From NCBI GenBank assembly GCA_964360065.1, contig CAYHTW010000002.1, positions 2,251 through 66,250 on the forward strand: a stretch of DNA of 64,000 bases, in the 5' to 3' direction. The notes beneath the pieces were generated by a model that saw nothing but the letters and a program-made list of their open reading frames with translations, did not search any database and had not been told where the DNA came from. The DNA is from an uncultured Candidatus Saccharibacteria bacterium (lineage in GTDB: Bacteria > Patescibacteriota > Minisyncoccia > UBA6257 > Colwellbacteraceae). Each line of letters begins with the position of its first letter. Position 1 is the first letter of the stretch. The translations under genes were made by a program, and so were the position numbers. Positions 9,436 to 48,180 of this stretch are shown here, piece after piece.

Positions 9436-10753
9436 TTACCTGAGTCTATAAGCTTTTTTCAGACGAACAAGCTCACGCTTGACCCCTATTTCATTCGTAC
9501 CTTTTAAGTGGACTCTGACTGATGCTTCTGTGTTGGAGGCGCGGATATTAACCCAAACTTGGTTATTATAAAAACTAAAACCGTCTTGCCGTGAAACTTT
9601 GAACTTCGAAGCCGGGTAAAGTTTTCTGACTCTGGAAATAAGACCATCTGGATCACTGGTTTTCAGATTCAGACCAACGCCAGTGTAAACATATGGCAAG
9701 TTGTCCACCCACTCGGAGAGTGAAAGTTTTTGAGATTTCATTTTAGAAATTTGGTTAATAACAAAAATCGCTGTCATGATTCCAGAATCTGCGAAGAAAA
9801 AGTCTTTGAAGTAATAATGGCCGGACTGCTCGCCCGCAAACTCAGTTTTTCTGCGTCTCATTTCTTTTTTAATGAAATAATGGCCGGTACGAGTTTCGTT
9901 TACCTTTATACCAGGCTTTAACCATCGCAAAGGCACCGAGCCTAGCGCAGTGTCCACGAGATGCGGCTCCTTAAAAAGAGGTGAAAGTAGAATAAAGATG
10001 ATGCCCGCATCTAGGGCCCTGCCTTCATTATCAACAAAGAAAATTCTATCTCCGTCTGCATCAAAGACAGCTCCAAAATCTGCCTTGTTGTTCAATACTG
10101 TACGCTGCAGTTGTTCTTTGGCATCCGGTGCTATTGGATTCGGACCGTGGGCTGGGAAATTACCATCGGGCTTAGCATTGATAAATATGGCTTTGATTTT
10201 TTTATGCTTATTTTTCTTTTGGCCGAAAAGTTCTTTCAGAACCGGGCCAGTCGAACCATTAGAAGAATCGAAGACAACCATTAGGGGGTTTTTAACTTCC
10301 AGAAACTTACTCAAAAAACTAACGTAACTTTTTGTATATCGCATAGATTTCTTCTCCGTTAACAGGATCGCCTTTTTCTTTAACTAATTTCAGACCGTTG
10401 TATTGTTTCGGATTGTGAGAAGCTGTAACCATCATTCCTCCGTCTGATTTCAAGTGGTTAACTAAAAATGACATTTCTGGAGTAGTAATAAGCCCCGATA
10501 AATGTAGTTTACATTTAGGGCTAGCCTTTTTAATTGATCTTATTAAGGTCCGGTAAAGTGAAACAGAACTAAGACGTGGGTCGTGACCCACCACCAAGCT
10601 CCCCATCTTATTACGTTTTTTATTTCCATTGAGAAGAAGCTTGGTGGCAACTAGGCCTAGTTTACCAATGACTTCTTCGTTAATATTTTTGGGGTAGATC
10701 CCTCTCACGTCGTAAACTCCAAAAATGTTGGATTTATTAAATTTGTTTTTCAT
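9436..10753 (-). pseudogene. Phosphomannomutase/phosphoglucomutase split by a frameshift into 144 aa N-terminal (10319-10753) and 302 aa C-terminal (9436-10344) ORFs
   Basis: The N-terminal fragment carries the active-site TASHNP motif; the C-terminal fragment carries the metal-binding DADGDR motif and domains II-IV. The two frames overlap by 26 nt at an A5 run. Confidence 0.6.
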
Positions 10754-10844
10754 ATGTCACCTTCGGCTTGAATTTAGACAAAGCACTTAATTGAATTTTA
10801 ACCTAATTTGATGTGTAATTTAAAGGTATAGTAAAAACTCCTTT

Positions 10845-12923
10845 ATGGCTAAGAAAAAACACCAGAATAAAAGACGGGAAGAAACTTTTCACATCATCCA
10901 TCCAGAAGCTAAGTCCAGTATCGTAGCCGTTTTCTCACTGGGATTAGCCGTGGTCTTTGTTTTATCTGGATTCCACGGGGCCGGACCCGTTGGAGAAATG
11001 ATTTTTAATGGGCTCACAAAACTGATGGGCTTGGGTTATTACCTGTTGCCGGCGACTCTCATTGCTATTAGTATCTCTCTTTTCACAAAAGACGCCAAAA
11101 GAATTGTTACGGCCACATTATTTGGCGGATTATTTGTGCTACTTTCCAGCCTCGGCATAATAGACGTTCTTGACCCCGGCCAAGGCGGCTGGCTCGGAGA
11201 AATACTAGGCAGCCTCAATTCCCTCTTCGGTTACTGGGCGGCGCTCACTATTAACTTCACAATATTGCTGGCGGCTCTCATCGCTACCTTCAACACTCCG
11301 ATTAAATTAAGTAAGGGACTGCTCTTCGGTGGTGGCGAGAAAAACGAAAAAGACAGGAAACCAGCCGAAGAACCCAAGTTAAGTTTACCAGAAAGCCCGG
11401 GCATAACCCCTATAGTTGGAGAACATACGGAAGCTACGGAATACAAGGAGAATAAAGAGAAAGAAAATAGAAAGGAGGATAAAGAAACATTTAAGCCTCG
11501 GCACGCTATTAAAACTAATTATGTTTTTCCGCCGCTTAGCCTACTCAAATCAACGAGTGAGAAACCAACCGTAGGAGATCTGAAGGCTAATGCCAATATT
11601 ATCAAAAGAACTTTGGAGAGTTTCGGTATGCCTGTAGAAATGGGAGAAATAACGATTGGGCCCAAAGTAACACGATACACTTTAAAGCCAGCTGAAGGAG
11701 TGAAGTTGTCCAGAATTACGGCCCTGAACCAAGACTTGGCGCTGGCCCTTGCTACCCACCCTATCAGAATAGAAGCTCCTATTCCCGGCAAGTCACTGGT
11801 GGGCATTGAGGTGCCAAATAAAGTAGGCAGTATTGTGCGCTTGGGAGGCTTGCTGAATTATTCGGAGTTCGCCAATTCTCCGTCACTCTGTTTCCCTTTG
11901 GGGCGCGATGTCTCTGGCGACCCGATATTTACTAACCTCTCTAAAATGCCCCACTTGCTCATCGCTGGCTCCACTGGGAGCGGTAAATCAGTAGCGATAC
12001 ACTCTCTTTTAATTTCTCTGCTTTATAAGAACTCACCCGAAACTCTAAGACTAATATTGATAGACCCGAAGCGCGTTGAACTTTCGGTTTATGAAGGTTT
12101 GCCACATTTGGTTTCATCCGTTATTACTGATGGCAAAAAAGCCGTGGCAGCTCTGAGGTTCGGCGTAAACGAGATGGAAAGACGCTACGAGGTTTTACTA
12201 AAAGCTGGTTGCCGCGATATTACGAGTTACAACGACAAAAAGAAAGAAGACCTAATGCCATACCTTGTTATTGTAATTGATGAGCTAGCTGATTTAATGA
12301 TCTCACACGGAAGAGATGTAGAGGGGCTTTCTGTTAGGCTGGCTCAAATGGCTAGGGCCACGGGTATACACTTAATAGTGTCAACGCAGCGACCGTCGGT
12401 AGAAGTCATTACCGGATTGATTAAAGCCAACATCACTTCCAGAATCGCCCTGCAAGTCGCCAGTCAGATTGATTCCAGAACTATTTTAGATATGGCTGGG
12501 GCCGAGAAACTTTTGGGAGGCGGCGATATGCTTTTCATCTCCGGAGAAATCTCCAAACCCAGGAGAATCCAAGGAACTTACGTAACTGATGAAGAAATTA
12601 AAAAAGTAGCCGACTTTATAACTCAAAATAATCTAGAAAATCCGGAAAACCTAAGCGGAGATAGAGAAGAAGGAATCCCGGAAAATAACGGCAAAGAAAC
12701 TTTCAGTAATTATATGGGAAGCGATGACGATGACGATCTGTTTGATGAAGCCCTGGAGGTAGTTAAAGAGGCTCAAAAGGCTTCGGCCTCCCTCCTTCAA
12801 AGAAGGCTTAAAGTCGGTTATGCTAGGGCTGCTAGGCTTCTGGATATAATGGAGTCTAAAAACCTGATTGGCCCCGGCGAAGGAGCTAAGCCTAGAGAGG
12901 TATATATAACTAAAGATGAATAG
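10845..12923 (+). CDS. ftsK: DNA translocase FtsK/SpoIIIE
   Basis: N-terminal TM helices, Walker A AGSTGSGKS, and a C-terminal winged-helix gamma-like domain. Confidence 0.9.
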   Translation: MAKKKHQNKRREETFHIIHPEAKSSIVAVFSLGLAVVFVLSGFHGAGPVGEMIFNGLTKLMGLGYYLLPATLIAISISLFTKDAKRIVTATLFGGLFVLLSSLGIIDVLDPGQGGWLGEILGSLNSLFGYWAALTINFTILLAALIATFNTPIKLSKGLLFGGGEKNEKDRKPAEEPKLSLPESPGITPIVGEHTEATEYKENKEKENRKEDKETFKPRHAIKTNYVFPPLSLLKSTSEKPTVGDLKANANIIKRTLESFGMPVEMGEITIGPKVTRYTLKPAEGVKLSRITALNQDLALALATHPIRIEAPIPGKSLVGIEVPNKVGSIVRLGGLLNYSEFANSPSLCFPLGRDVSGDPIFTNLSKMPHLLIAGSTGSGKSVAIHSLLISLLYKNSPETLRLILIDPKRVELSVYEGLPHLVSSVITDGKKAVAALRFGVNEMERRYEVLLKAGCRDITSYNDKKKEDLMPYLVIVIDELADLMISHGRDVEGLSVRLAQMARATGIHLIVSTQRPSVEVITGLIKANITSRIALQVASQIDSRTILDMAGAEKLLGGGDMLFISGEISKPRRIQGTYVTDEEIKKVADFITQNNLENPENLSGDREEGIPENNGKETFSNYMGSDDDDDLFDEALEVVKEAQKASASLLQRRLKVGYARAARLLDIMESKNLIGPGEGAKPREVYITKDE

Positions 12924-13605
12924 AGAAGGACAAATGGGGATATCGAAATTACTCGGAGAACTTTTAGAAGAAAGAGGTATTAACCCTGAGAAATTAAGCT
13001 ACGCTACTAACGTTCCGACTCGTTTTGTTACCGCTCTCTTAGAGGGCAACTTTAAAGAACTACCAGCTAAACCGTATGTCAGGGGTTATCTTATTAAGAT
13101 TGCCGCCGCGCTGGGCGTGGAAGACGAAGTTATTATGGAAGCTTACCGGGAAAGCACAGAAATCAGAAGCTCTGGGGGCAATGATAAGCTCCCTATGAAC
13201 CGTTTTGCTATTCAAAAAATAAATAAGAACTTTATAATCGTGGCTGTTGTCATTTTGGGGCTACTAATTTTCTTGGGACTTAGAATAAACGATATTATGG
13301 GTACCCCAACCCTGCAGGTCAATCTCCCAGAAAATCCATTTTCCACAAACGACCAGACTTTGAAGATAATCGGCAAGATGAGCGCTAAGGACAAACTCAC
13401 CCTCAATCAGGAAATAGTTTATACTAATCGGGACGGAACGTTCCAAAAAGACGTAACTCTCTCCCCTGGTTTGAACACTTTTGAGTTTGATGCCACTAGA
13501 TTTCTGGGACGCGAGACTAAAATCGTGAGACAAGTTGTCTACGAAGAACCTCAACCGGTTACTCCAGATAATCAAGGTAGTAATCAACAAAATAAACCAC
13601 AATAA
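12916..13605 (+). CDS. HTH (XRE-like) domain membrane protein, RodZ-like architecture
   Basis: N-terminal HTH, a single TM helix IIVAVVILGLLIFLGL and a C-terminal extracytoplasmic domain. Confidence 0.5.
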   Translation: MNREGQMGISKLLGELLEERGINPEKLSYATNVPTRFVTALLEGNFKELPAKPYVRGYLIKIAAALGVEDEVIMEAYRESTEIRSSGGNDKLPMNRFAIQKINKNFIIVAVVILGLLIFLGLRINDIMGTPTLQVNLPENPFSTNDQTLKIIGKMSAKDKLTLNQEIVYTNRDGTFQKDVTLSPGLNTFEFDATRFLGRETKIVRQVVYEEPQPVTPDNQGSNQQNKPQ

Positions 13606-16471: not shown

Positions 16472-17023
16472 ATGCACCCTTTAAAGTTTTTTATGCGATC
16501 TATGCGGAATTGGAAAACTATTGGTACGCCAATGCCCTCTTCACTTATCGCCTCTAAAAAAATGGCCGATCCAGTTGATTTCGGTTCCGCAAGATGTGTA
16601 GTGGAACTCGGAGCAGGCTCGGGACCGATAACTAAAGAATTATTAAAGAGGTTGCATCCAGAGGCCAAGCTTTTTGTTTTTGAGAGAGTAAAAGATTTTT
16701 CGGACTTGATTAGAGATTTCAACGACCCGCGACTCACTGTCGTAAATGACTCAGCAGAGAAACTCATCCCTATTTTGAAATCTTATGGAGTAGAGATGGT
16801 GGACGCCGTGGTTTCAACGCTCCCGCTCGCTCTGATGGACAAAGAGGTTAAAGAAAATATATACTCCTCTATTTCCAAAATTCTGCGTCCTGGGAGTCCT
16901 TACGTTCAGATACAGTATTCTCTGCTTTCCAAACGTGAACTCAAAAAGAATTTTTCTAAAGTTAGTTTAAGATTTACTATACTTAATTTCCCTCCTTCTT
17001 TTTTCTACACCTGCAGAGTTTAA
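16472..17023 (+). CDS. Class I SAM-dependent methyltransferase
   Basis: Motif I VELGAGSGPITKELL. Confidence 0.55.
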   Translation: MHPLKFFMRSMRNWKTIGTPMPSSLIASKKMADPVDFGSARCVVELGAGSGPITKELLKRLHPEAKLFVFERVKDFSDLIRDFNDPRLTVVNDSAEKLIPILKSYGVEMVDAVVSTLPLALMDKEVKENIYSSISKILRPGSPYVQIQYSLLSKRELKKNFSKVSLRFTILNFPPSFFYTCRV

Positions 17024-17854: not shown

Positions 17855-18487
17855 TTATTTGGTGAGGTTATCAAATTGACTCATTAAATCCTTATATTTA
17901 TTGTTTAAGTCGTTAATTGCTTTAGCTTCGTCATTCATTGAAGAGATTAATTCTTTCACCTTCTCCTTAGCATTAGGTACGCTTCCAGAATTACTGAACC
18001 TGCTTAGTAAGACGTCCAAGAGTTGACGAACGTCAGCGTTGTAGTTTATAAGCCTTTGCACTATTTGAGATTCGTTCAAAACAGCCTCCAGACCAATACG
18101 GGCTGCATTTTCCGGTTTAACAGAATTAAGATTATTAGTCATTACTCCTAGTTGCGTAGAGAGATCGTAGGCTTTAACGAAAGCTGCTTCGTTGTCCTGA
18201 ATTTCTTTTGAAACCAAGTTCAAGCCATCTGTATAATTCCCTCTTTCGTCGGCCTGTCTAATATTCTCCAAATTAGCTATTGATGTTTCGGAAGAAGCGA
18301 CAATTTCTTCGGCAATAATAGCTCCCCTACCACGGGCGTCAGTAAAGTCTTGGGGTACAAATGTCTTTGGGAAACTGATAACCAGGACGACTTTAACTAG
18401 AAAGTAAATGGCTACCAAGCCCACCACCATTACAGAGGCTGTCCTAAACCAGTATTTCTTCATTATGTGCATTGTCGGCATATCCAT
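17855..18487 (-). CDS. Membrane-anchored hypothetical protein with coiled-coil ectodomain
   Basis: N-terminal TM helix VMVVGLVAIYFLVKVVLVI and no known motif. Confidence 0.45.
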   Translation of the reverse strand: MDMPTMHIMKKYWFRTASVMVVGLVAIYFLVKVVLVISFPKTFVPQDFTDARGRGAIIAEEIVASSETSIANLENIRQADERGNYTDGLNLVSKEIQDNEAAFVKAYDLSTQLGVMTNNLNSVKPENAARIGLEAVLNESQIVQRLINYNADVRQLLDVLLSRFSNSGSVPNAKEKVKELISSMNDEAKAINDLNNKYKDLMSQFDNLTK

Positions 18488-18547
18488 AAAATCTATTCAA
18501 TTTCTTTACAAGAATCAAGCATTCAATTAAAATGACGTAGATTTAAA

Positions 18548-18621
18548 GCGGGATTAGTATAGTGGCAGTACGCTACCTTGCCAAGGTAATGGCGCCGGTT
18601 CGATTCCGGTATCCCGCTCCA
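18548..18621 (+). tRNA. tRNA-Gly (anticodon GCC), CCA encoded
   Basis: gcgggat...ttGCCaa...ggttcgattcc...atcccgc-t-cca. Confidence 0.85.
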
Positions 18622-18690
18622 GTATCAAACAGAGTCAGTACGATTCAAGATCCGTATAGTCATTCATGCTAGTTAAAATTTATTGGAAAG

Positions 18691-19647
18691 TTATGCATCA
18701 CATCTGTTTCCGCTTTGTGAACTGTTTGGCGCGGTAACCTGCGAAGCTATTTGCGCGTAACCAGACGCGCTGGAATAATTGGCTCCGAGAATTTCCTGCG
18801 GGTTCACGTCTTTCCAATCAACTCCTTTACTTTTCATGTAAGTTGCTATGGTGAGGTAGGTATCCGGGAACCAATAGGAATTCACGGTCAGAGCTGTCTT
18901 CCATATGACTTGCTCGCCAACTCCCTGCGAAGCCATAAGCTCTAGAAGTCCGAGCATAGCCATACCATGATTGCAGTCTGGAAAATAGGTTGAGTTATTA
19001 CAACACGGCCTGTATATGCCCCTTGATACTTTATCCACAAGAGCCTGCTGTTCCGGCGTCAATGTGAAAAACATATGCCGGCTATAGTGATCCATAGAAT
19101 CTCCCCTAGATATCGTCCATCCTCCGGTTGAGGCAAAATTCTGCACTCCGCCGTAAGCCGGATTTACCATCTCGCCTGATTCTAGTATCGGGTTTTTACT
19201 GGCGAGACCGAGTGCCCAAAATAGATTTAACAAATAGCCTGCGTTATCCTTTGTCATTTTAAGATTGCCATCGCTTTGCCCTAGAAGTAGGTTTTTGTAT
19301 TCATCTGTAAAAGCTCTTCTTTCTTCGTATATGGCTTTAAATCTATCGGCATCGATTGCGCCCACACTGACAAGTTTTACACCAAGATCGCCCCAGGTGA
19401 CCGGCAGAACAACTCCTCCAGGCGGAAATACTTTTTCTTCCAGCATGGATACCTGTGTTTTTTCCGATTCCGCCACGCCAGTCGATTTTTGCTGGATATT
19501 CTCGGCTTTGAACCCAGTTGTGTATACCAACGCGCTTGCCAAAATTACTGCTGAAATAAGAGTGCTGACAGGAAACGTATGGTTTTCTTTAGCCTGTTCA
19601 ACTGGCTGAGAATTTTCAATTATCTGTTTTGGTGTCTTGTCTTCCAT
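18691..19647 (-). CDS. Signal-anchored Cys-motif protein of unknown function (motif RPCCNNSTYFPDCNHGMAM)
   Basis: N-terminal TM anchor and a clustered Cys/His motif. Last gene of the copper-locus strand block. Confidence 0.45.
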   Translation of the reverse strand: MEDKTPKQIIENSQPVEQAKENHTFPVSTLISAVILASALVYTTGFKAENIQQKSTGVAESEKTQVSMLEEKVFPPGGVVLPVTWGDLGVKLVSVGAIDADRFKAIYEERRAFTDEYKNLLLGQSDGNLKMTKDNAGYLLNLFWALGLASKNPILESGEMVNPAYGGVQNFASTGGWTISRGDSMDHYSRHMFFTLTPEQQALVDKVSRGIYRPCCNNSTYFPDCNHGMAMLGLLELMASQGVGEQVIWKTALTVNSYWFPDTYLTIATYMKSKGVDWKDVNPQEILGANYSSASGYAQIASQVTAPNSSQSGNRCDA

Positions 19648-19655
19648 AGTTCTAT

Positions 19656-20174
19656 CTATTCATCACAGCAATCGGCCAGTTTGTTCACTAACTCTTCCAG
19701 CTGAGAACTGTCTTTTGCTGTTGTTTTTATTTTATGACCGCTGATTAAGTTAAGTTTAAGCGCCCAAAAGATCGAATAAATCTTATAAGCCTTCTCAAAC
19801 ATACTCTTTGCTTCGTCTTTTTTGTTTTCGGATTGCAATTTGTTGCCGACCTCAGTGAGCCGCATGGCGGTAGCCAAGAGGTGCTTGGAAATACACCACG
19901 TTTCTCCTTCGTGATTTGGCATGAGTTTTGCTAAAAGTTCTTTCCGAATACTCCGAATTTCCTGTGATGTGTCGAAATACTCGTCTTTTTTGGTTTTCAC
20001 GCCTGTAAAGAAAAAATGCTCTTCAAGACTGATGAGATTCATCACCGCCAAACTCAAATCTTCTGCAATAGATAAATCTACTCCGGCTTTTTCTTTAAGA
20101 GAGTTTATTTTTGCTAGGAATTTATCCATTGTTAATGTTTTAGTGTTCACCCCGTTAGAAATTTTTGTAGTCAT
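19656..20174 (-). CDS. Hypothetical cytoplasmic protein (C-terminal CCDE)
   Basis: Plausible codon usage and no recognisable domain. Confidence 0.4.
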   Translation of the reverse strand: MTTKISNGVNTKTLTMDKFLAKINSLKEKAGVDLSIAEDLSLAVMNLISLEEHFFFTGVKTKKDEYFDTSQEIRSIRKELLAKLMPNHEGETWCISKHLLATAMRLTEVGNKLQSENKKDEAKSMFEKAYKIYSIFWALKLNLISGHKIKTTAKDSSQLEELVNKLADCCDE

Positions 20175-20283
20175 GTTTTTTAATTCTTTTATTGCGGCCC
20201 CGCTAGCGACAACTGAATTTCTAGCGGGGTTCGTAAGTTTATGCTTCGATATGGCTCAGCATAATCCTGAACTTACTGAAGGA

Positions 20284-21063
20284 CTAGATGAAGAAAATTA
20301 AAATGCCTAGAATGATCATGGCGAGCCCAGCCCAAAACCGCACTCTTTTCATGTTTGTCTTTTTCCATTCCTGCATTTTGTCCACAATCGTTTTGTCTGC
20401 CGCGATCCAAAGCACTACGGCAAGCGGCAACGCAAGGATTAGGTTATAGAGCGCGAGGTAACCGAAGCCCGTGAAGTATGTTACTTGGTCGCGAAGCAAA
20501 CCAATGACCATGAGGTATGGTCCGCCCATACAGGGGAACTGGCAGATACCAACCAAAAGCCCCAACCCGAATGCGGCCGGGAACGACGCTTTTTCCATCA
20601 GCCGACCCATTGCAGTATGGGAAACTGACGGAATTTTTAGCTTGATCGGGAATCTTGGGAAAAACTCGTTGATGAGGTTAATTACTCCAAAAACGATGAG
20701 AATTGTCGCTCCAAGTTTACCCATGAAGTGGGGTGTGTTGAACAGGTGCAACACCTTGAGAATGCCGAGCCCAATCAAGAAATACGCTGCAAAAATCCCA
20801 GCGATATACGTACCGCCGATCTGAAGGATTCTTTTCCTTGTCATCTGCATCCCAAAGAGGAATGCGATAGTGATGAGAAGAATGGAGAATGAACACGGAT
20901 GAACGCTGTCGAGAAGAGCGGCGAGCAAGACGAGTGGCAGAAGCCACGCACCCTTATTACTTAAATCCCAGATGAGTGAGGCAGTTATAGCGCTATTCTT
21001 GAGTACCACAAGCCCGACAATGACTGCAACGACTACGGAAAGAATTATTAGTATTCTTTTCAT
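20284..21063 (-). CDS. CcdA/DsbD-family thiol-disulfide transmembrane electron-transfer protein
   Basis: Polytopic, with paired membrane cysteines (DSVHPCSF and GICQFPCMGGP). Confidence 0.55.
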   Translation of the reverse strand: MKRILIILSVVVAVIVGLVVLKNSAITASLIWDLSNKGAWLLPLVLLAALLDSVHPCSFSILLITIAFLFGMQMTRKRILQIGGTYIAGIFAAYFLIGLGILKVLHLFNTPHFMGKLGATILIVFGVINLINEFFPRFPIKLKIPSVSHTAMGRLMEKASFPAAFGLGLLVGICQFPCMGGPYLMVIGLLRDQVTYFTGFGYLALYNLILALPLAVVLWIAADKTIVDKMQEWKKTNMKRVRFWAGLAMIILGILIFFI

Positions 21064-21068
21064 GGGAG

Positions 21069-21569
21069 TTATGGAGTTACTACCGCTTTTATCTCAAGCC
21101 GTGTCGTTCCTCCATTCGCTTCAGTGAGATCAACGAATCTGTCTACCGATCCCACGCCTGCTGGTCCGTGAGCGTTCGGATCGTAAACAACCCTTACGTC
21201 CAGCGATTCTCCGGTCTTGATAACTTCATTTGCCTTGGCGACCTGTCCGCCGTGTCCTGGCATTCCAAACGGCCCCTTTTCTCTACCAGCATTTTCAGTA
21301 TACGCGATAGTGCACATACAGGAAGTTACGACACTTGAGAGTGTCACATCTTTATCTGTCGGATTGGTTACCTTAAATACCTTTTCTACTTTTCCATTAG
21401 TCATTGAAATCGTTCCGAAATCGTACGGCGTTTCTAAAGCGACTAAAGAACCTTTTTCGCTATTCTCGGCCACCGAAGGTACGATTGTCTGATTACTCCG
21501 ACCATAGAACATAAGGCCTATCAGCCCGAGCACGATAATCGCACCTATAATTATTGTTTTTTTATTCAT
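21069..21569 (-). CDS. Secreted DUF1573-like beta-sandwich protein with SCMCT (CxC) motif
   Basis: Signal anchor; FGTISMTNG...SCMCT pattern resembling DUF1573. Confidence 0.45.
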   Translation of the reverse strand: MNKKTIIIGAIIVLGLIGLMFYGRSNQTIVPSVAENSEKGSLVALETPYDFGTISMTNGKVEKVFKVTNPTDKDVTLSSVVTSCMCTIAYTENAGREKGPFGMPGHGGQVAKANEVIKTGESLDVRVVYDPNAHGPAGVGSVDRFVDLTEANGGTTRLEIKAVVTP

Positions 21570-21654
21570 GTTGTTAGTAGAAATTACAAAACCAGTTCGA
21601 CTTACCCGTCCGTAGTTTTATATGGAGGAGGGCAAACGGTTTTACATCGGCGCC

Positions 21655-22068
21655 TTAGTAAGTAGCGGGACTATTTTCGTGCAGAGCTAGCCAGCGCGTT
21701 ATCTCTCTTTTGTATGAAGTGTCGGGCGGAAAATTATAAAGAATACCGACAAGAGCAAGCGGCCTAAGTAAGGATGGACTTATAAAAACTACGAATGTCA
21801 TCCACGGAACAAGAAGTAAAGAAATTATGAGCGCTACGGTACCGAAATTTACGGGTACGTTGATAAATGACTGATAGGCAGAAATATGATGGAGAACTAT
21901 AGCCACAGTATCCTGTGGGCAAAGTGATGCTCCAATTGCTGAAAATGGGCAATCCCCTGATATGCGTCCGTCTGGTCCGTGCATCATAGTGGCAAAGCTA
22001 AAAAGTACGATCGCCATGAACGATAACAGAATAAGTGATGTAATAATTTTATTAAGTAAAGATGGCAT
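21655..22068 (-). CDS. Membrane protein with paired Cys motifs (GDCPFS...LCPQD)
   Basis: Three TM segments and no known family recognised. Confidence 0.4.
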   Translation of the reverse strand: MPSLLNKIITSLILLSFMAIVLFSFATMMHGPDGRISGDCPFSAIGASLCPQDTVAIVLHHISAYQSFINVPVNFGTVALIISLLLVPWMTFVVFISPSLLRPLALVGILYNFPPDTSYKREITRWLALHENSPATY

Positions 22069-22074
22069 ACTTGA

Positions 22075-22296
22075 TTAAATGGTTTCTCCGCGCCTCTCAA
22101 GCATCATGTGATGAATTGTTCCAATCGCAAGCCAAATTGCGATAAGAATAAGAATTCCGGCACAGAGCAGGGCATCAACCTTTGTAACCCCGAATACCAA
22201 GTTATCGGCACCGCCGAGAATAGCGGCCGCGAATGTAATGACTCCGGCGAAGCCTACGGTAACGCTGGTAATATGCATTAATTTTGATAATTTCAT
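22075..22296 (-). CDS. Small two-TM membrane protein
   Basis: 73 aa and hydrophobic, lying immediately downstream of copA. Confidence 0.35.
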   Translation of the reverse strand: MKLSKLMHITSVTVGFAGVITFAAAILGGADNLVFGVTKVDALLCAGILILIAIWLAIGTIHHMMLERRGETI

Positions 22297-22331
22297 AATA
22301 TTTTTTTAATTAATCCAGTAATTTCGACCTT

Positions 22332-24632
22332 TTATAATTTTTTACTTTTAATGCGGAGTGAATTGCCGACTACAGATACACTGGACATTGCCATCGCGAA
22401 TCCAGCGAATACCGGTGACAAGAGCCATCCGAAGACCGGATAAAAAATTCCGGCTGCAAGCGGAATGCCGACAATATTATATATAAAAGCCCAAAAAAGG
22501 TTTTGTTTGATTCCGCGCATGGTCATTTTAGAGAGTGAAATTGCTTTGACCAACTTTGAAATATCTCCGTGGAGAAGAGTGATGCCTGCCGACTCAATCG
22601 CCACGTCCGTGCCTGTGGCCATAGCAATGCCGATATCGGCTTGCGCGAGCGCTGGCGCGTCATTAACGCCGTCTCCATCCATCGCCACAATTTTACTCTC
22701 CGCCTGCAATTCTTTTATTTTATTTAACTTATCTTCCGGCATTACTTCCGCGACTACATCGTCTATTCCTACCTGTTTTGCTATCGCCAGAGCCGTATTT
22801 TTATCGTCTCCGGTAAGCATTACTATTTTAATGCCAAGCTTGTGAAGATTTTTCACCGCCTCTATCGCTTCCGGTTTTATGGCGTCCGCAACCATAAATA
22901 CACCAAGTACGGATTCTTTGGTAGCAAGTACAACCGGTGTTTTCCCTTCGGCGGTTTCTTTTTGAAGTTCTTCTTTATTAAAAGCGAGGTTTAAGTCAGA
23001 AATGAGTTTGATGTTGCCGGCAAAATATTCCGCGCCGGAAACCGTTCCCTTTAATCCCTTGCCTTTTATAATTTCAAAGCCCGAAACAGACGCAAGCTCA
23101 ATACTATTCTGCTTCGCGTATTCCGTAACAGCGTGGGCAATTGGATGCTCGGATTTATTCTCAAGCGAAGCCAAAATTGAGATTATTTCTTTTTCGCTTT
23201 TTGATGAATGATTTTTAATGCTTACCAATTCCGGCCTCCCGCGGGTCAATGTGCCTGTCTTATCAACTACCACCACATTCACCTTATGAAGCTTCTCAAG
23301 TGTGGCCGCGTCTTTTACCAGTATTCCTTCACCTGCACCCTTGCCTACTCCAACGATAATCGCTGTCGGTGTGGCCAACCCTAAGGCACACGGGCAGGCA
23401 ATGACCAAGACCCCGACAAATGAAACCAGCCCGTACGAAAGCGCCTGCGCGAACCCAAGATACTGCGAGCCAATAAGAAACCAGAGGCCAAGAGAAAGAA
23501 AGGCAATAACTAACACAATCGGCACAAACACACCGGAAATTTTATCCGCCAACGCCTGAATCGGCGCCTTTGACCCCTGCGCTTCCTCAACCATCCTTAT
23601 GATGTTCGCGAGCATGGTTTCGGAACCAACCTTTGTCGCTTTGAAAATAAAAGCGCCGCTTGTATTAATAGTCCCGGCGACAACGGTATCCCCAGGCATT
23701 TTCTCAACCGGCATCGGCTCACCGGAAATCATTGATTCGTCAACAAAGGACTGCCCTTCGGTAATTACACCATCAACTGGAATTTTCCCTGCTGGTTTTA
23801 CAATAATCAAATCACCGTGTACGACCTCGGTAATAGGAATTTCAACTTCTTTCCCGTCTCTTGTTACGAGCGCTGTTTTGGCCTGCAAATTTAAAAGTTT
23901 TTCTATCGCGTCTCCAGTCTTCAATTTTGAACTAGCTTCAAGATATTTGCCAAGCGTAATGAAAGCAATGACTATAATCGTCACATCAAAGTAGGACTGA
24001 TTAACATTTATGTAGGGCTTTAGAGTTTCCCCGAACGCCATAATAGCAAAGCTATATACAAAAGCCGCACTTGTTCCAATACCTATAAGCGTATCCATAT
24101 TAGCCTTGCCATAGCGGAGAAACCTGTAAAATCCCAAAAGATACGGCTTACCGACAACAAGAAGCATGTAAGTCGCCATGATTGGGAGCAAATATCGAAA
24201 AGCTCCTTCCCAAACCGGCGTAGCAGCTGGAATAATTTTGAACTGCGCCAAAATGTCCCATGCCAATATAACGGCACTAATAAAAGCAAGCGGCAGAGCG
24301 GATAAAACTTTCGTTCTCATATCAGCAAGTTCGGCCAGCTTTTCATTTTTCGTCTGATTAAGTCCCAAGTGCGCTGCGTGCTCGCCCTCGGACATTCCCA
24401 TTTCCGCCGCGGACCGCTCTTCTGGAACAACTAAAGAATATCCAAGTGGCTCAATGTGTTTGGAAAGAGCCTGAGGACTTGTTTTTGAAGGATCAAAAGA
24501 AACTTTTGCTTTTTCCGTGCCATAATTGACCTCAACGGATTCCACTCCTTCAACTTTTTTGAAAGTCTTTTCAATCATTGATGAGCACGAAGCGCAATGC
24601 ATTCCGCGAATCTTATATGTTTCTTTTTTCAT
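22332..24632 (-). CDS. copA: Copper-translocating P1B-type ATPase CopA
   Basis: N-terminal HMA domain [12 protein letters not shown] in TM6, DKTGTLT phosphorylation motif, GDGVNDAP. Confidence 0.9.
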
Positions 24633-24681
24633 AATATTTATATGGTGACTTGCCTTGAGTTTGTCGAATGGGTTTACTAAA

Positions 24682-24957
24682 TTATTTTCTCTTAAGTTTA
24701 TAGACTTTGAGGACTTCCTCTTTCGCCTTGCTTGTTTGCCCGGACCTTACTTGGTTCAAGATACAACTGCCCAAATGGTTTTCAAGCAATAAATCTTCCA
24801 CATTTGAGAGACCTTGTTTGACTGCCGATGTTTGGGTTATCACGTTTATGCAATAAGTGTTTTTTTCGACCATTTCCTGCAATCCCCGGATTTGGCCCTC
24901 AAGAATCTTAAGTCGGCGGACGATCTTAAGTTTCGCTTTGTCTTCCATATATTTCAT
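24682..24957 (-). CDS. csoR: CsoR/RcnR-family metal-sensing transcriptional repressor
   Basis: [23 protein letters not shown]...YCINVITQ...HLGSCI, with the conserved Cys/His sensor residues. Confidence 0.7.
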
Positions 24958-25084
24958 ACAGAAACAGTATATACCCCCTAGGGGTATAGTCAAATTTAAA
25001 AATAGAAATGATTAGAAATATACTCAAGTAGTAAAGAGCTATTTCCTATATAATTAATATGGGCTTATAAGGCCGTTAATTGTT

Positions 25085-25708
25085 ATGGCTTCACCAACAG
25101 ATCCGACGGGGGCAATGGAACTCCTCATTAATTATCGTTATTGGCTCCTCGTCCCCCTCTCCTTTATTGAAGGACCGGTAGTATCTTTCATCGCGGGGGC
25201 GTTATCGCGCCTCGGTTATTTTAATCCTTATTTAGCTTTCGTTATATTTTTTCTGAAAGATATTATTGTAGACGGCGTCTTCTATGTTGTCGGCCGTTTC
25301 GGTGAGAAAGCTTCACTTGTCAGAAGACTTCTAGCCAAAATAGGGATTAAGGAGGGGCACATCGACGAAGTGAGGATCTTATGGGCCAAGCACGGTTTTA
25401 GGACTATGCTTCTAAGTAAATTGTCATATGGCCTATCTCCCGGATTCCTTATGGCTGCTGGGATGGTGGGTATGCCGGTGGGAGTATTTTTCAAGTACGC
25501 AGTTTTGGTCAGTCTGGCTCAATATGGGGTATTATTTATGTTGGGATACTACTTCGGGAATGCTTTTGGAAACGCGACTAATGTGTTAGAGAATATACAG
25601 TATGTGATTGGGGCGGTACTCTTGGTGGCCACTGTCTACTATATACTTACCAGATATGTAAGCCGAAAACTGATAGAAGAAGAGAAAGAGGTTAAGAAAG
25701 AACTATAA
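25085..25708 (+). CDS. DedA/VTT-domain membrane protein
   Basis: DedA-like TM topology and motifs. Confidence 0.7.
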   Translation: MASPTDPTGAMELLINYRYWLLVPLSFIEGPVVSFIAGALSRLGYFNPYLAFVIFFLKDIIVDGVFYVVGRFGEKASLVRRLLAKIGIKEGHIDEVRILWAKHGFRTMLLSKLSYGLSPGFLMAAGMVGMPVGVFFKYAVLVSLAQYGVLFMLGYYFGNAFGNATNVLENIQYVIGAVLLVATVYYILTRYVSRKLIEEEKEVKKEL

Positions 25709-48098: not shown

Positions 48099-48174
48099 GC
48101 GCCCATAGCTCAGCTGGTTAGAGCACAGTCCTTATAAGGCTGGGGTCCTTGGTTCGAGTCCAAGTGGGCGCACC
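48099..48174 (+). tRNA. tRNA-Ile with anticodon TAT (UAU), CCA encoded
   Basis: Anticodon stem-loop cagtc-ctTATaa-ggctg, T-loop ggttcgagtcc. Confidence 0.7.
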
Positions 48175-48180
48175 AGATAA

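Follow-up and report, generated by a model that had tools for sequence, protein, structure and literature searches.

The window, a 64,000-nt stretch of DNA, carries eight co-directional open reading frames on the - strand between positions 18691 and 24993 (window ORF listing), as the first-pass annotation had described. The genes (g1 to g8) and the features beside them are as follows.

24993..24966: sigma-70-like promoter, TTGACT-16-TATACT, overlapping the CsoR operator palindrome
24970..24988, - strand: CsoR operator, palindrome TATACCCC-TA-GGGGGTATA, read in the sequence and found as a stem
24682..24957, - strand: g1 (csoR), repressor of the CsoR family that senses Cu(I); 91 aa, counted from the ATG at 24957
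22332..24632, - strand: g2 (copA), Cu(I)-exporting ATPase of the P1B-1 type, with a single HMA domain at the N-terminus
22075..22296, - strand: g3, two-TM protein of 73 aa, accessory gene with poor conservation
21655..22068, - strand: g4, 137-aa two-TM protein, first gene of the conserved module
21069..21569, - strand: g5, signal-anchored DUF1573 Ig-like protein
20284..21063, - strand: g6, 259-aa polytopic membrane protein of the DsbD/LysE clan, CcdA-like
19656..20174, - strand: g7, 172-aa cytoplasmic all-helical protein, optional module member, new family
18691..19647, - strand: g8, extracytoplasmic protein of 318 aa with an N-terminal anchor; signature gene of the module, new family
18548-18621, + strand: tRNA-Gly(GCC), 69 nt from the g8 stop

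The product of g1 was assigned to the CsoR family, as first proposed, based on a Pfam profile match to PF02583 (3e-21) and the presence of the sensor residues Cys36-His61-Cys65 (C-H-C); the RicR/CsoR NCBIfam model matched at 3.6e-17, under the family cutoff. Translation of csoR probably starts at the ATG at 24957 and not at the TTG ORF start at 24993, from which the reading frame crosses both operator and promoter. The identity of g2 as CopA was confirmed by matches to TIGR01511 (7.7e-179), E1-E2_ATPase and HMA, and by the motifs GMHCASC, CPC413, DKTGT, N(x6)YN(x4)P and P(x6)M(x2)SS, which make up the full Cu+ P1B-1 signature. These two genes are ordinary and the operator palindrome is a textbook one.

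The operator pattern TACCCC-N3-5-GGGGTA lies about 25 nt 5' of csoR in 30 related loci, and its chance rate is 1.2% per 171-nt window. Further copies were located about 30 nt 5' of g4 in loci L036, L079 and L023 (3/46 loci, against the 1.2% background), of g8 in L012 and of g5 in L076. An operator directly before the module is seen in few loci, most having no separate one, and no second CsoR operator was found in the window. The eight genes of the block are presumably co-transcribed; the gaps ahead of g5 and g7 (85 and 109 nt) could accommodate internal promoters.

Cysteine proteins encoded downstream of copA

No family was found for g3 in Pfam and NCBIfam profile searches. Its description as a 73-aa membrane protein was correct, with two TM segments; homologues occur in just 5-7 of 80 loci, and in L003 a YgaP-like_TM protein fills the same slot. 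The next gene, g4, was found in 60 of the 80 loci. It had been described as a 3-TM protein with DCPFS and LCPQD motifs; the DCPF and LCPQ motifs were recovered in the 137-aa product, but the hydropathy scan gave two TM segments (8-26 and 78-96) and not three. The outward loop carries Cys40, Cys50 and His61, and the C-terminus the motif RWLxLxENSP. In alignment A5 residues C40 and H61 are invariant, while C50, W126, L127, E131 and P134 are conserved at 90% or more. No match to g4 was obtained in Pfam, NCBIfam or PHROG. Judged from these comparisons g4 represents a new family. The g7 and g8 proteins represent new families too, and among the components only the DUF1573 and DsbD-clan proteins are known to have experimentally studied relatives.

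The g5 product, secreted or anchored, matched PF07610 at 8e-12, above the gathering score, which bears out its recognition as a DUF1573-like protein with an SCMCT motif. The motifs T-S-C84-M-C86-T and P-x-A-H134-G-P are invariant among 57 orthologues. DUF1573 includes selenoprotein members with UGC at the CxC motif (PMC9312934).

Gene g6, which is missing from about one third of loci, had been called a CcdA/DsbD-family oxidoreductase. At the level of the superfamily this stands, since 23 of 31 orthologues matched SfLAP and 10 of 31 matched DsbD_TM (best 1.4e-7); the window protein itself gave no Pfam match at threshold. Its NCBIfam matches, to ArsG (7.5e-7) and DsbD (0.019), both fell under the cutoffs, and no sequence match was found in the PDB. 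The protein carries P-C57 in TM1, C174-x-F-P-C178-x-GGPY in TM4 and His106/His112 in a loop. The P-C motifs of TM1 and TM4 are invariant among orthologues and C174 is a third conserved membrane cysteine; C174 and the loop histidines would be as compatible with metal binding as with electron transfer.

Both remaining proteins were confirmed as described: g7 as a soluble protein of 172 aa ending in CCDE, and g8 as a signal-anchored protein of 318 aa with RPCCNNSTYFPDCNHGMAM. Invariant residues of g7 are His53, Cys94, His98 and the C-terminal Cys169-Cys170. Those of g8, which is encoded in at least 591 genomes, are W144, R213, C215, C216, D224, C225, N226, H227, G228 and the tail Cys316; occasional members of the family are fused to rhodanese, HMA or cupredoxin/CopI domains. 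All 14 cysteines of g4-g8 occupy invariant or near-invariant positions.

The helical subdomain of g8 is CcmH-like and superposes on CcmH, and its cysteines lie in the loop that follows helix 1. Together with the CcdA-like membrane protein, and with the anchored thioredoxin or redoxin of some module loci, this resembles the CcdA-ResA/CcmG-CcmH pathway, which is the reducing branch of cytochrome c maturation. The first-pass annotation had itself named cytochrome c maturation genes in a cytochrome-bearing genome as a case against its proposal; here these would be CcdA and a CcmH-like reductase. We regard this reading as exceedingly improbable. Among the families listed, PF03918 matched 0 of 112 g8-family members at E<=1, the hhalign score was not significant (16 of 300 shuffles were at least as good) and Foldseek gave no match. 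The LRCxxC motif, heme lyase and cytochromes c are absent from the module, and g8 differs from CcmH in its extra N-terminal domain and Cys-bearing tail. Neither the window nor 1.24 Mb of related loci contained a WWD heme-handling protein, and the window holds a single incidental CxxCH. Electron-transport complexes I-IV are missing in almost all groundwater Patescibacteria MAGs (PMC8672522).

Conservation, neighbours and origin of the module

The order g4-g5-g6-(g7)-g8, on a single strand, recurs in most of 80 species-level, independent Patescibacteria genomes, and the arrangement is therefore far beyond chance. The module is lineage-wide in Patescibacteria, and the block is not an island specific to one genome. 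A search for the neighbourhood placed g4-g8 beside copper ATPases across Patescibacteria: a P1B ATPase lies within 10 kb of the module in 25 of the 26 loci for which 18 kb or more of context was available, in genomes whose other flanks differ. The median gap between module and ATPase is 432 nt (<=500 nt in 32/54). The full Cu+ signature is present in 31 of the 57 linked full-length ATPases, and about 14 belong to the CPH (CopB) type.

Several other genes accompany the module. A Trx-fold AhpC/TSA-Redoxin protein with CxxxC was found in 14 loci, all of which lack g5 and g6, and in 0 of 44 loci with g6 (Fisher p = 8e-10). Based on clustering and Pfam assignment, a TM-anchored WCPHC thioredoxin is encoded directly 5' of g8 in 14 loci. 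HMA::DsbD_2 fusions lie immediately 3' of g8 in 29 loci, and cupredoxin genes, present in 28 of 80 loci, encode a CupA-like C...CxMxM chaperone motif (CupA is described in PMC5646241) and not a blue-copper site. YHS, DUF302 and HMA genes are further neighbours. C-terminal CC/CCH tails occur on three unrelated proteins of these loci, namely g7, a 147-aa TM protein and a 93-aa His/Met protein.

CcdA-like, thioredoxin and redoxin proteins are generic thiol-redox parts. They would also serve a role that has nothing to do with copper, in oxidative folding or the general upkeep of envelope disulfides, and copA would then be a neighbour by chance or simply by shared inheritance; the scarcity of separate operators before the module agrees with this. 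We consider it quite unlikely, given the close and recurrent linkage to P1B ATPases, the operators directly 5' of g4 or g8 in some genomes, and the abundance of HMA, YHS, cupredoxin and DUF302 genes in the loci.

The block had been judged by eye to be richer in GC than its surroundings, in keeping with horizontal acquisition. The windowed GC test did not support the former: the block has a GC content of 0.440 versus 0.430 +/- 0.009 for same-size windows (z = 1.15), and 11% of windows equal or exceed it. Acquisition is plausible on other grounds. Tetranucleotide usage is atypical (leave-one-out L1 distance 0.224 versus 0.134 +/- 0.013, z about 7), the anomaly maps to about 18.5-25 kb, exactly over the block, and CGCG, GCGC and TGCA are enriched 2-2.5 times relative to the rest. 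The flanking genes of the window stand beside the module in just 0-3 of 80 genomes, so cassette-like mobility is plausible, and g6, g7 and g8 share 70-90% identity with distinct lineages. Against this stand the normal GC, the lack of any integrase, att repeat or transposase in the window, and the possible contribution of membrane-protein coding bias to the k-mer shift; the nearest relatives differ gene by gene, which argues against a single recent donor. The tRNA-Gly gene does adjoin the block, as first noted, but without a targeting signature: no repeat of its 3' end was found around the block, and the adjacency is not kept in 30 other module loci. It is incidental. That the block is a mobile cassette from another Patescibacterium is a tentative possibility, compatible with any functional reading.

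A proposed copper-responsive envelope relay

The presumed operon joins a standard csoR-copA pair to a Patescibacteria-wide envelope module, g4-g5-g6-(g7)-g8. We suggest with moderate confidence that it is a CsoR-controlled copper-stress operon encoding an envelope relay for thiol redox and Cu(I) handling, analogous to Scs. The earlier proposal of an uncharacterised periplasmic copper pathway of Cys-motif proteins is strengthened by the synteny with copper ATPases and CsoR, the operators before the module in some genomes, and the Trx-fold proteins that replace or join its parts. A rise in cytoplasmic Cu(I) would release CsoR from its palindromic operator and allow transcription, and CopA would export Cu(I). 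Using its cysteines in TM1 and TM4, the g6 protein would pass reducing equivalents to the outer side of the membrane, with cytoplasmic thioredoxin or the CC-tailed g7 as donor; since g7 occurs without g6 in 6 loci, g7 is not simply a donor to g6. The recipients would be the outward Cys proteins g5 (CxC), g8 (CC...CxH) and g4 (loop C...C...H), which may bind exported Cu(I), keep envelope thiols reduced against copper-catalysed oxidation, or both. We infer the direction of electron flow, and copper binding by g4, g5 and g8 is likewise presumed.

The closest functional analogue is Scs (suppressor of copper sensitivity, ScsABCD), present in Salmonella, Proteus and Caulobacter. This envelope system is induced by copper and centres on a membrane protein of the DsbD superfamily, which feeds outward Cys proteins; the soluble Scs members combine Cu+ binding with thiol oxidoreductase activity (PMC10907172, PMC3322552, PMC8900818). 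ScsB, however, is a large DsbD that has additional domains in the periplasm, whereas g6 is of minimal CcdA size. ScsC and ScsD have the thioredoxin fold, whereas the module pairs g6 with a CxC protein of the Ig-like DUF1573 type and with g4 and g8, which have no known relatives. Control is by CueR/CpxR there and by CsoR here, and the module hosts are monoderm-like Patescibacteria. Compared with the csoR-copA(-copZ) operons of Firmicutes and Actinobacteria, csoR, copA and the layout of operator and promoter are standard, but copZ is missing, and five to six envelope genes that are conserved across Patescibacteria follow instead.

Alternatively, g6 could be a Cys-lined permease for a thiophilic metal and not an electron conduit. 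Cu(I) would then pass as a thiolate among the CC tail of g7 (or the alternative TM protein ending in CC), Cys57, Cys174 and Cys178 of g6, the CxC of g5 and the CC...CxH and Cys tail of g8, which would add to CopA a second path for exporting or sequestering the metal. The three intramembrane cysteines and two loop histidines of g6 fit such a hand-off, as do its best NCBIfam match, the thiophilic-substrate permease ArsG, the CC/CCH tails, the HMA::DsbD_2 genes following g8, and the HMA and cupredoxin fusions within the g8 family. The Mer relay (MerP-MerT-MerA) likewise has successive Cys pairs on an outer protein, a membrane protein and a flexible cytoplasmic C-terminal CC tail. MerA, MerR and MerP are nevertheless absent from the module, the MerT similarity is a single weak match of one g6 orthologue (0.037), and regulator and pump are of the copper type. 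The single redoxin that replaces g5 and g6, the anchored thioredoxins, and the DsbD_TM/SfLAP similarity with paired P-C motifs, which is the CcdA pattern, point to redox chemistry, and the hand-off is a minority possibility.

A role in cuproprotein maturation is unlikely. On this reading the module would supply copper to an extracytoplasmic protein, for instance the cupredoxins encoded nearby, in the way that TlpA-Sco-PCuAC does for CuA centres. That system also couples thiol reduction to copper binding outside the membrane, and the substituting CxxxC redoxin shows weak SCO1/SenC similarity in 9 of 15 members (best 3.5e-5), with B. japonicum ScoI (Blr1131) among its PDB matches (1e-3). Its best matches, however, are AhpC/TSA and Bcp, not Sco. 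The cupredoxins, frequent as they are, lack the blue-copper site, and the block in the window holds no cupredoxin or other cuproenzyme gene. CuA assembly serves cytochrome oxidase at copper need, whereas CsoR control implies expression at copper excess, and module hosts are reported to be without respiratory chains (PMC8672522).

On the preferred reading of a thiol-redox and Cu(I)-handling relay, the module is probably a new way to protect or use surface thiols under high copper. Four or five uncharacterised Cys proteins of the membrane and cell surface accompany copper pumps in hundreds of ultra-small groundwater Patescibacteria.

Sensor, pump and operator of the copper block

Open reading frame calling gave eight minus-strand ORFs, arranged as described in the first-pass annotation. 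The features discussed here are as follows.

18691-24993, minus strand: the block, with csoR (g1), copA (g2), a 73-aa two-TM protein (g3), a 137-aa two-TM protein (g4), a DUF1573 protein with a CxC motif (g5), a 259-aa membrane protein (g6), a 172-aa soluble protein ending in a Cys pair (g7) and a 318-aa anchored extracytoplasmic protein (g8)
24970-24988: CsoR operator palindrome TATACCCCTAGGGGGTATA, upstream of the csoR ATG, identified by reading the sequence and by a stem search
18548-18621, plus strand: tRNA-Gly(GCC), 69 nt past the last stop codon of the block

The gaps between successive genes from g1 to g8 were 49, 35, 6, 85, 5, 109 and 8 nt. Based on searches of all eight products against Pfam, NCBIfam and PHROGs, a family could be assigned to only three (CsoR, CopA and the DUF1573 protein); the remaining five had no assignment above threshold in these collections. 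The product of g1 carries the CsoR fold (PF02583, Trns_repr_metal, 3e-21, 76 bits against a cutoff of 22.8) and contains Cys36, His61 and Cys65, the x-Cys-His-Cys ligand set for Cu(I) sensing, with C36 and H61 conserved at 90% or more among 41 orthologues. The product of g2 matched TIGR01511 (7.7e-179, 596 bits against a cutoff of 397) and has one HMA domain together with the motifs GMHCASC, CPC (TM4), DKTGT, N(x6)YN(x4)P (TM7) and P(x6)M(x2)SS (TM8), which among the P1B-ATPase subgroups is the Cu(I) P1B-1 signature. This csoR-copA portion of the block is ordinary. A role of the whole operon in the maturation of cuproproteins is unlikely, as its regulator is a sensor of copper excess and the block contains no cuproenzyme.

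The half-sites of the operator, TATACCCC-TA-GGGGGTATA, lie immediately 5' of the csoR ATG (24957), and a -35/-10-like pair (TTGACT-16-TATACT) overlaps the palindrome. The called TTG start at 24993 probably over-extends csoR (24958-24993), because it runs through the gene's own promoter/operator; the start is probably the ATG at 24957, which would give a protein of 91 aa (orthologues, 87-91 aa). The pattern TACCCC-N3-5-GGGGTA occurred 43 times in the window and 1.2 Mb of related Patescibacteria loci fetched for comparison (numbered with the prefix L), and 30 of these occurrences sit approximately 25 nt upstream of csoR.

The module g4-g5-g6-(g7)-g8 showed sites of its own in some of these loci. 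With two mismatches allowed, operator-like sequences were identified approximately 30 nt upstream of g4 (L036, L079 and L023), upstream of g5 (L076) and upstream of g8 (L012, where g8 is the first gene of the cluster), the background rate being 1.2% per 171-nt window. In L036 the module precedes csoR-copA, and each of the two units has a separate operator. These sites are direct, if sparse, evidence that would place the module in the CsoR regulon. The window has one operator alone, and copper control of g3-g8 would therefore rely on read-through from the csoR promoter, which is plausible given the short gaps.

Module proteins and the resemblance of g8 to CcmH

All 14 cysteines of the window's g4-g8 occupy invariant or near-invariant positions. 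In g4, hydrophobic segments (8-26 and 78-96) enclose a loop in which Cys40 and His61 are invariant and Cys50 is conserved at 90% or more, followed by a C-terminal tail with RWLxLxENSP; no family match was obtained when 31 members were scanned. The product of g5 belongs to DUF1573 (PF07610, 8e-12, 45.5 bits against a gathering score of 26.1) and consists of an N-terminal anchor followed by the invariant motifs T-S-C-M-C-T and P-x-A-H-G-P-x-G, C84-M-C86 being invariant across 57 orthologues. DUF1573 has selenoprotein members with UGC at the CxC motif (PMC9312934), which marks the motif as a redox or metal centre.

The product of g6 is composed of a leading helix and a CcdA-sized core. Its invariant P56-C57 and P177-C178 are both covered by TM-like segments (TM1 and TM4), giving the Pro-Cys pair in two pseudo-symmetric helices that characterizes CcdA/DsbD, while C174, H106 and H112 are conserved at 90% or more. 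The window protein had no Pfam match at E <=1 and did not reach the gathering score of DsbD_TM (PF02683) or DsbD_2; its best NCBIfam matches, ArsG (7.5e-7) and DsbD (0.019), were both under cutoff. Among 31 orthologues, SfLAP was matched by 23 and DsbD_TM by 10 (best 1.4e-7), these being two families of one clan. The earlier description of g6 as a CcdA-like oxidoreductase thus holds for the paired Pro-Cys and for the clan-level similarity found through orthologues, and lacks a Pfam match of the window protein itself; g6 would belong to CcdA/DsbD at the superfamily (clan) level only. Its third membrane cysteine and loop histidines, and its ArsG and MerT echoes, speak for the main rival explanation of the operon, a Mer-like hand-off of Cu(I) between thiolates with g6 as the permease, which we consider doubtful.

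The product of g7 lacks a hydrophobic segment and is predicted to be all-helical (pLDDT 70, a model of moderate confidence); His53, Cys94, His98 and the C-terminal Cys169-Cys170 are invariant. No fold was assigned to it because the fold search gave only generic helical bundles (rubrerythrin, Dps, HEPN), none of them discriminating. By sequence, nothing significant was retrieved from the PDB with the g8, g6 and g7 profiles or with the single g5 sequence, and matches to All4940 (E 0.21) and Rif2 (0.1) were dismissed as non-significant.

The signature gene of the module, g8, encodes an N-terminal anchor (24-42), a core (70-306, pLDDT approximately 80) and a tail rich in Gly and Gln that bears one or two G-C-G motifs; the model is of moderate confidence, and its motif loop (218-222) is poorly modelled. 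Residues W144, R213, C215, C216, D224, C225, N226, H227, G228 and C316 were invariant in 112 representatives of 29-51% identity, and the family motif is YRPCC(G/N)N...PDCNHG. Occasional fusions of the family are to rhodanese (3 representatives), HMA and CopI-like cupredoxin domains. Two beta-propeller proteins were also observed: a 603-aa g8-family member (P0309, L087:820-2631) has a C-terminal BNR/sialidase-like propeller, and in L001, where g6 is missing, a YNCE propeller fused to DUF1573 (521 aa) lies directly upstream of g8.

When the g8 profile was aligned with E. coli CcmH, the first helices of the two were paired, YRPCC was matched with LRCPKC, and D224-C-N226 with the conserved D-S-N of CcmH. 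The reference was checked (PF03918, 1.7e-50; 100% identity to 80 metagenomic copies), and a metagenome scan for diverse CcmH sequences returned identical E. coli copies only, so that no profile could be made. The hhalign E value was 0.12, and 16 of 300 shuffled CcmH sequences scored equally well or better. PF03918 gave no match at E <=10 to g8 or its C-terminal half (against 1.7e-50 for the E. coli control) and was not among the families listed for the 112 members; the LRCxxC active-site motif is missing from the family, and Foldseek returned no match. Membership of g8 in the CcmH/NrfF/CycL family was rejected, with PF03918, LRCxxC and the shuffle statistics all against it.

Cytochrome c maturation genes, named in the first-pass annotation as an example of what would speak against its proposal, were looked for. 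Neither the window nor 1.24 Mb of related loci contained a WWD heme-handling protein, and the single CxxCH of the window is incidental. Groundwater Patescibacteria MAGs from the same aquifer as the contig are almost without exception devoid of respiratory complexes (PMC8672522). Since the CcmH statistics fail and these sequences gave no WWD protein, cytochrome c maturation was rejected as highly improbable. The CcmH likeness of g8 is treated as a possible resemblance of fold, to a three-helix bundle whose cysteines lie in the loop following helix 1, and would point to thiol chemistry.

Distribution, gene substitution and possible mobility

More than 6,900 relatives of g8 were found in a protein collection clustered at 90%, the best 120 being 64-79% identical; the named ones among these were recorded as 'hypothetical protein' from Patescibacteria (Liptonbacteria, Wolfebacteria, Yonathbacteria, Sungbacteria, Parcubacteria). 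An exhaustive search of 50%-identity representatives gave 591 clusters, and a pattern scan in which each species was represented by one genome placed g8 in at least 591 genomes. Nearly all of the best 80 genomes were labelled as Patescibacteria lineages or 'bacterium', with the exception of one Ignavibacteriaceae bin, the taxonomy being that of MAG record titles, some of which are evidently mislabelled (e.g. 'Saccharibacteria' and 'Ignavibacteriaceae' bins). Relatives of g7 numbered more than 4,200, at 75-89% identity.

A divergent g8 relative of 36% identity, P0343, lies on a contig that looks non-Patescibacterial (locus coordinates 1-1068), where it is preceded by two DUF2085 membrane proteins and followed by a YkuD L,D-transpeptidase; two-component systems and Lgt are encoded on the same contig, and a PCYCGC (PF13798)-DUF1573-DUF2933 trio is located approximately 7 kb away. 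This contig suggests that the g8 family reaches beyond Patescibacteria. In other phyla the place of g8 might be taken by PCYCGC; there were no PCYCGC sequences in the fetched loci, and the literature gave only a mention that was uninformative.

For 80 species-level loci, ORFs were called and compared with the window proteins, and all ORFs were then clustered.

Occurrence of block genes in the 80 loci
g8 homologue: 79/80
g5/g6 cluster: 74/80
g4-like: 60/80
P1B ATPase: 56-57/80
CsoR: 40/80
g7: 28/80

Module homologues were always on the same strand as g8 and in the order g4-g5-g6-(g7)-g8, with the ATPase either upstream (csoR-copA-g4...g8, as in the window) or directly after g8. The search for the neighbourhood in other genomes, as proposed earlier, found it beside copper pumps: the ATPase was present in 25 of the 26 loci having at least 18 kb of context. 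Its median distance from the module was 432 nt (500 nt or less in 32 of 54 gaps), and of 57 full-length linked ATPases, 31 had the complete Cu+ signature and about 14 had CPH (CopB-type). Such close linkage to copper pumps contradicts a copper-independent function in disulfide maintenance, which appears very unlikely. Three separately fetched long contigs agreed, based on precomputed Pfam labels, and carried as extra neighbours cupredoxin, HMA::DsbD_2, YHS, SHOCT, DUF302 and DUF5676. The HMA::DsbD_2 neighbours are a further point for the Mer-like hand-off.

Gene substitution was determined in the 64 loci that extend 3 kb or more upstream of g8. The gene for g6 (with g5) was present in 44 and missing from 20; a membrane-anchored protein of thioredoxin fold (AhpC/TSA-Redoxin) was found in 14 of the latter 20 and in none of the 44 (Fisher p = 8e-10). 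This redoxin has an invariant M-C-Y-P-x-C-W (CxxxC), a P-G-H motif and a His/Met-rich linker, and it replaces g5 and g6 in L013, L015, L023, L029, L049, L061 (7318-7989), L069, L075, L077, L085 and others, often accompanied by three proteins without a family assignment: a 147-aa secreted protein (GGHHREG), a 4-TM protein with SCCAHY and an ICMT-like methyltransferase. Among proteins of known structure, the redoxin is closest in sequence to Bcp-type peroxiredoxins, pneumococcal surface thioredoxins and ResA. It was not named Sco because similarity to SCO1/SenC was only weak (9 of 15 members, best 3.5e-5), the best matches being AhpC/TSA and Bcp.

The slot between g6 and g8 holds g7 or an unrelated 147-aa membrane protein (CPxC, C-terminal CC), or either of these plus an anchored thioredoxin with WCPHC. 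A 93-aa His/Met-rich membrane protein ending in CCH is also recurrent in the loci. A C-terminal Cys pair is therefore borne by three unrelated proteins, namely g7 (CCDE), the 147-aa TM protein (..NCC) and the 93-aa protein (..CCH). Examples of proteins ending in the pair are:

L003:7517-7972
L052:1320-1760
L058:11005-11283

From its recurrence in these sequences, the terminal CC looks like a shared functional device, and such tails also favour the Mer-like hand-off. In the same L003, a Hainich Patescibacterium, the neighbours of the copper locus include a fusion of a LexA/S24 peptidase with an N6/N4 DNA methyltransferase, an MvaI/BcnI-type restriction enzyme beside the fusion, and bAvd, the accessory protein of diversity-generating retroelements (together at 10589-13230 and 16671-16951).

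The anchored thioredoxin adjoining g8 has YGAxWCPHCQNEK and three more conserved cysteines (L071:9566-9970 and nine other loci). We take it to resemble the thioredoxin-like domain fused to bacterial VKOR homologues; if this is true, it would be an oxidant and not a reductant. A recurrent cupredoxin neighbour bears C...C-x-M-x-M, a motif like that of CupA, a Cu(I) chaperone of pneumococci. CupA has been described (PMC5646241). The replacement of the g6 and g5 pair by the redoxin, and the thioredoxins beside g8, argue most strongly for a module that would perform thiol-redox chemistry; copper, judging from the surrounding genes, is its context.

The block had been thought a GC-rich island next to a tRNA gene. 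The GC enrichment was not borne out: its GC content was 0.440 against 0.430 +/- 0.009 in windows of the same size (z = 1.15), 11% of which were at least equal to it, and GC3 in the eight genes varies about the level of other long ORFs. A role of tRNA-Gly as a targeting site was rejected: no repeat of the tRNA 3' end was found within 18400-25300 and no integrase or transposase ORF in the block or its immediate flanks; the window has ten tRNA genes scattered over 64 kb, and tRNA adjacency was absent beside the module in 30 other loci. One of the ten is a tRNA-Ile with anticodon TAT (UAU) at 48099-48175 (plus strand); in bacteria AUA is mostly read by a lysidine-modified CAU tRNA, and a UAU tRNA-Ile is uncommon.

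In tetranucleotide usage no stretch of the window deviates more than the block (L1 0.224 against 0.134 +/- 0.013, z approximately 7, leave-one-out), the anomaly being located to approximately 18.5-25 kb with 2.5-kb windows. In the block, CGCG, GCGC and TGCA, all palindromes, occur 2-2.5 times as often as elsewhere in the window, and TTAA, AGCT and CTAA are rarer (TTAA and AGCT about half as frequent). Skewed tetranucleotides at normal GC may reflect a differing history of restriction-site avoidance. Genes flanking the block accompany the module in just 0-3 of 80 other genomes. A single recent donor was rejected because the nearest relatives differ gene by gene (g6 90% to L025, csoR 79% to L013, copA 74% to L020, g8 70% to L016). 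Our reading is that the block behaves as a cassette relocating within Patescibacteria, neither a tRNA-targeted island nor the gift of a single recent donor.

Proposed function and significance

The operon is given an even chance of being a copper-stress envelope relay, a functional reading based on sequence, models and context. Relief of CsoR repression would allow CopA and g4-g8 to be expressed together; g6 would pass reducing power outward, and the conserved Cys and His residues of g5, g8 and g4 would bind exported Cu(I), keep surface thiols reduced, or both. Scs proteins combine Cu+ binding with thiol oxidoreductase activity (PMC10907172; PMC3322552, PMC8900818). The parallel is one of function only: Scs itself has a ScsB-type DsbD with periplasmic domains and the Trx-fold ScsC and ScsD, whereas g6 is CcdA-sized, g5 an Ig-like DUF1573 protein and g8 helical.

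No published description of the module was found in a literature search; one groundwater study merely records copA in Patescibacteria. The concept has precedents in copper-induced envelope thiol systems, CcdA-fed relays and thiolate hand-off. What appears new, as judged from the searches, is three protein families that have no Pfam or NCBIfam model, two of them unusually conserved. We tentatively propose, at less than even confidence, that g4, g7 and g8 with the minimal DsbD-clan g6 and the CxC DUF1573 g5 may form an undescribed, Patescibacteria-specific surface copper/thiol system, near-universal in a large part of the phylum, in which a CcmH-like helical scaffold (CC...CxH centre, Cys-tipped flexible tail) was recruited to capture Cu(I) or to carry out copper-coupled thiol redox chemistry in hosts without cytochromes c, or else that g6-g7 may be a new cysteine-relay Cu(I) permease.

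Patescibacteria account for a large part of bacterial diversity and are for the most part uncultured; in their tiny genomes, conserved modules of several genes are rarely seen. Two families without models are here held at 60-89% identity across lineages, above the accompanying copper pump (median identity to the window in the 80 loci, 61-66% for g6, g7 and g8 against 44% for CopA), and hundreds of species-level genomes link them to copper sensing and export. If the functional reading is true, the module would add new folds to the copper-binding and thiol-redox proteins and offer a testable case of a DsbD-clan protein with non-thioredoxin partners. A copper-coupled surface thiol system would also explain how surface-dependent epibionts shield cysteines exposed on structures such as pili and adhesins against copper.
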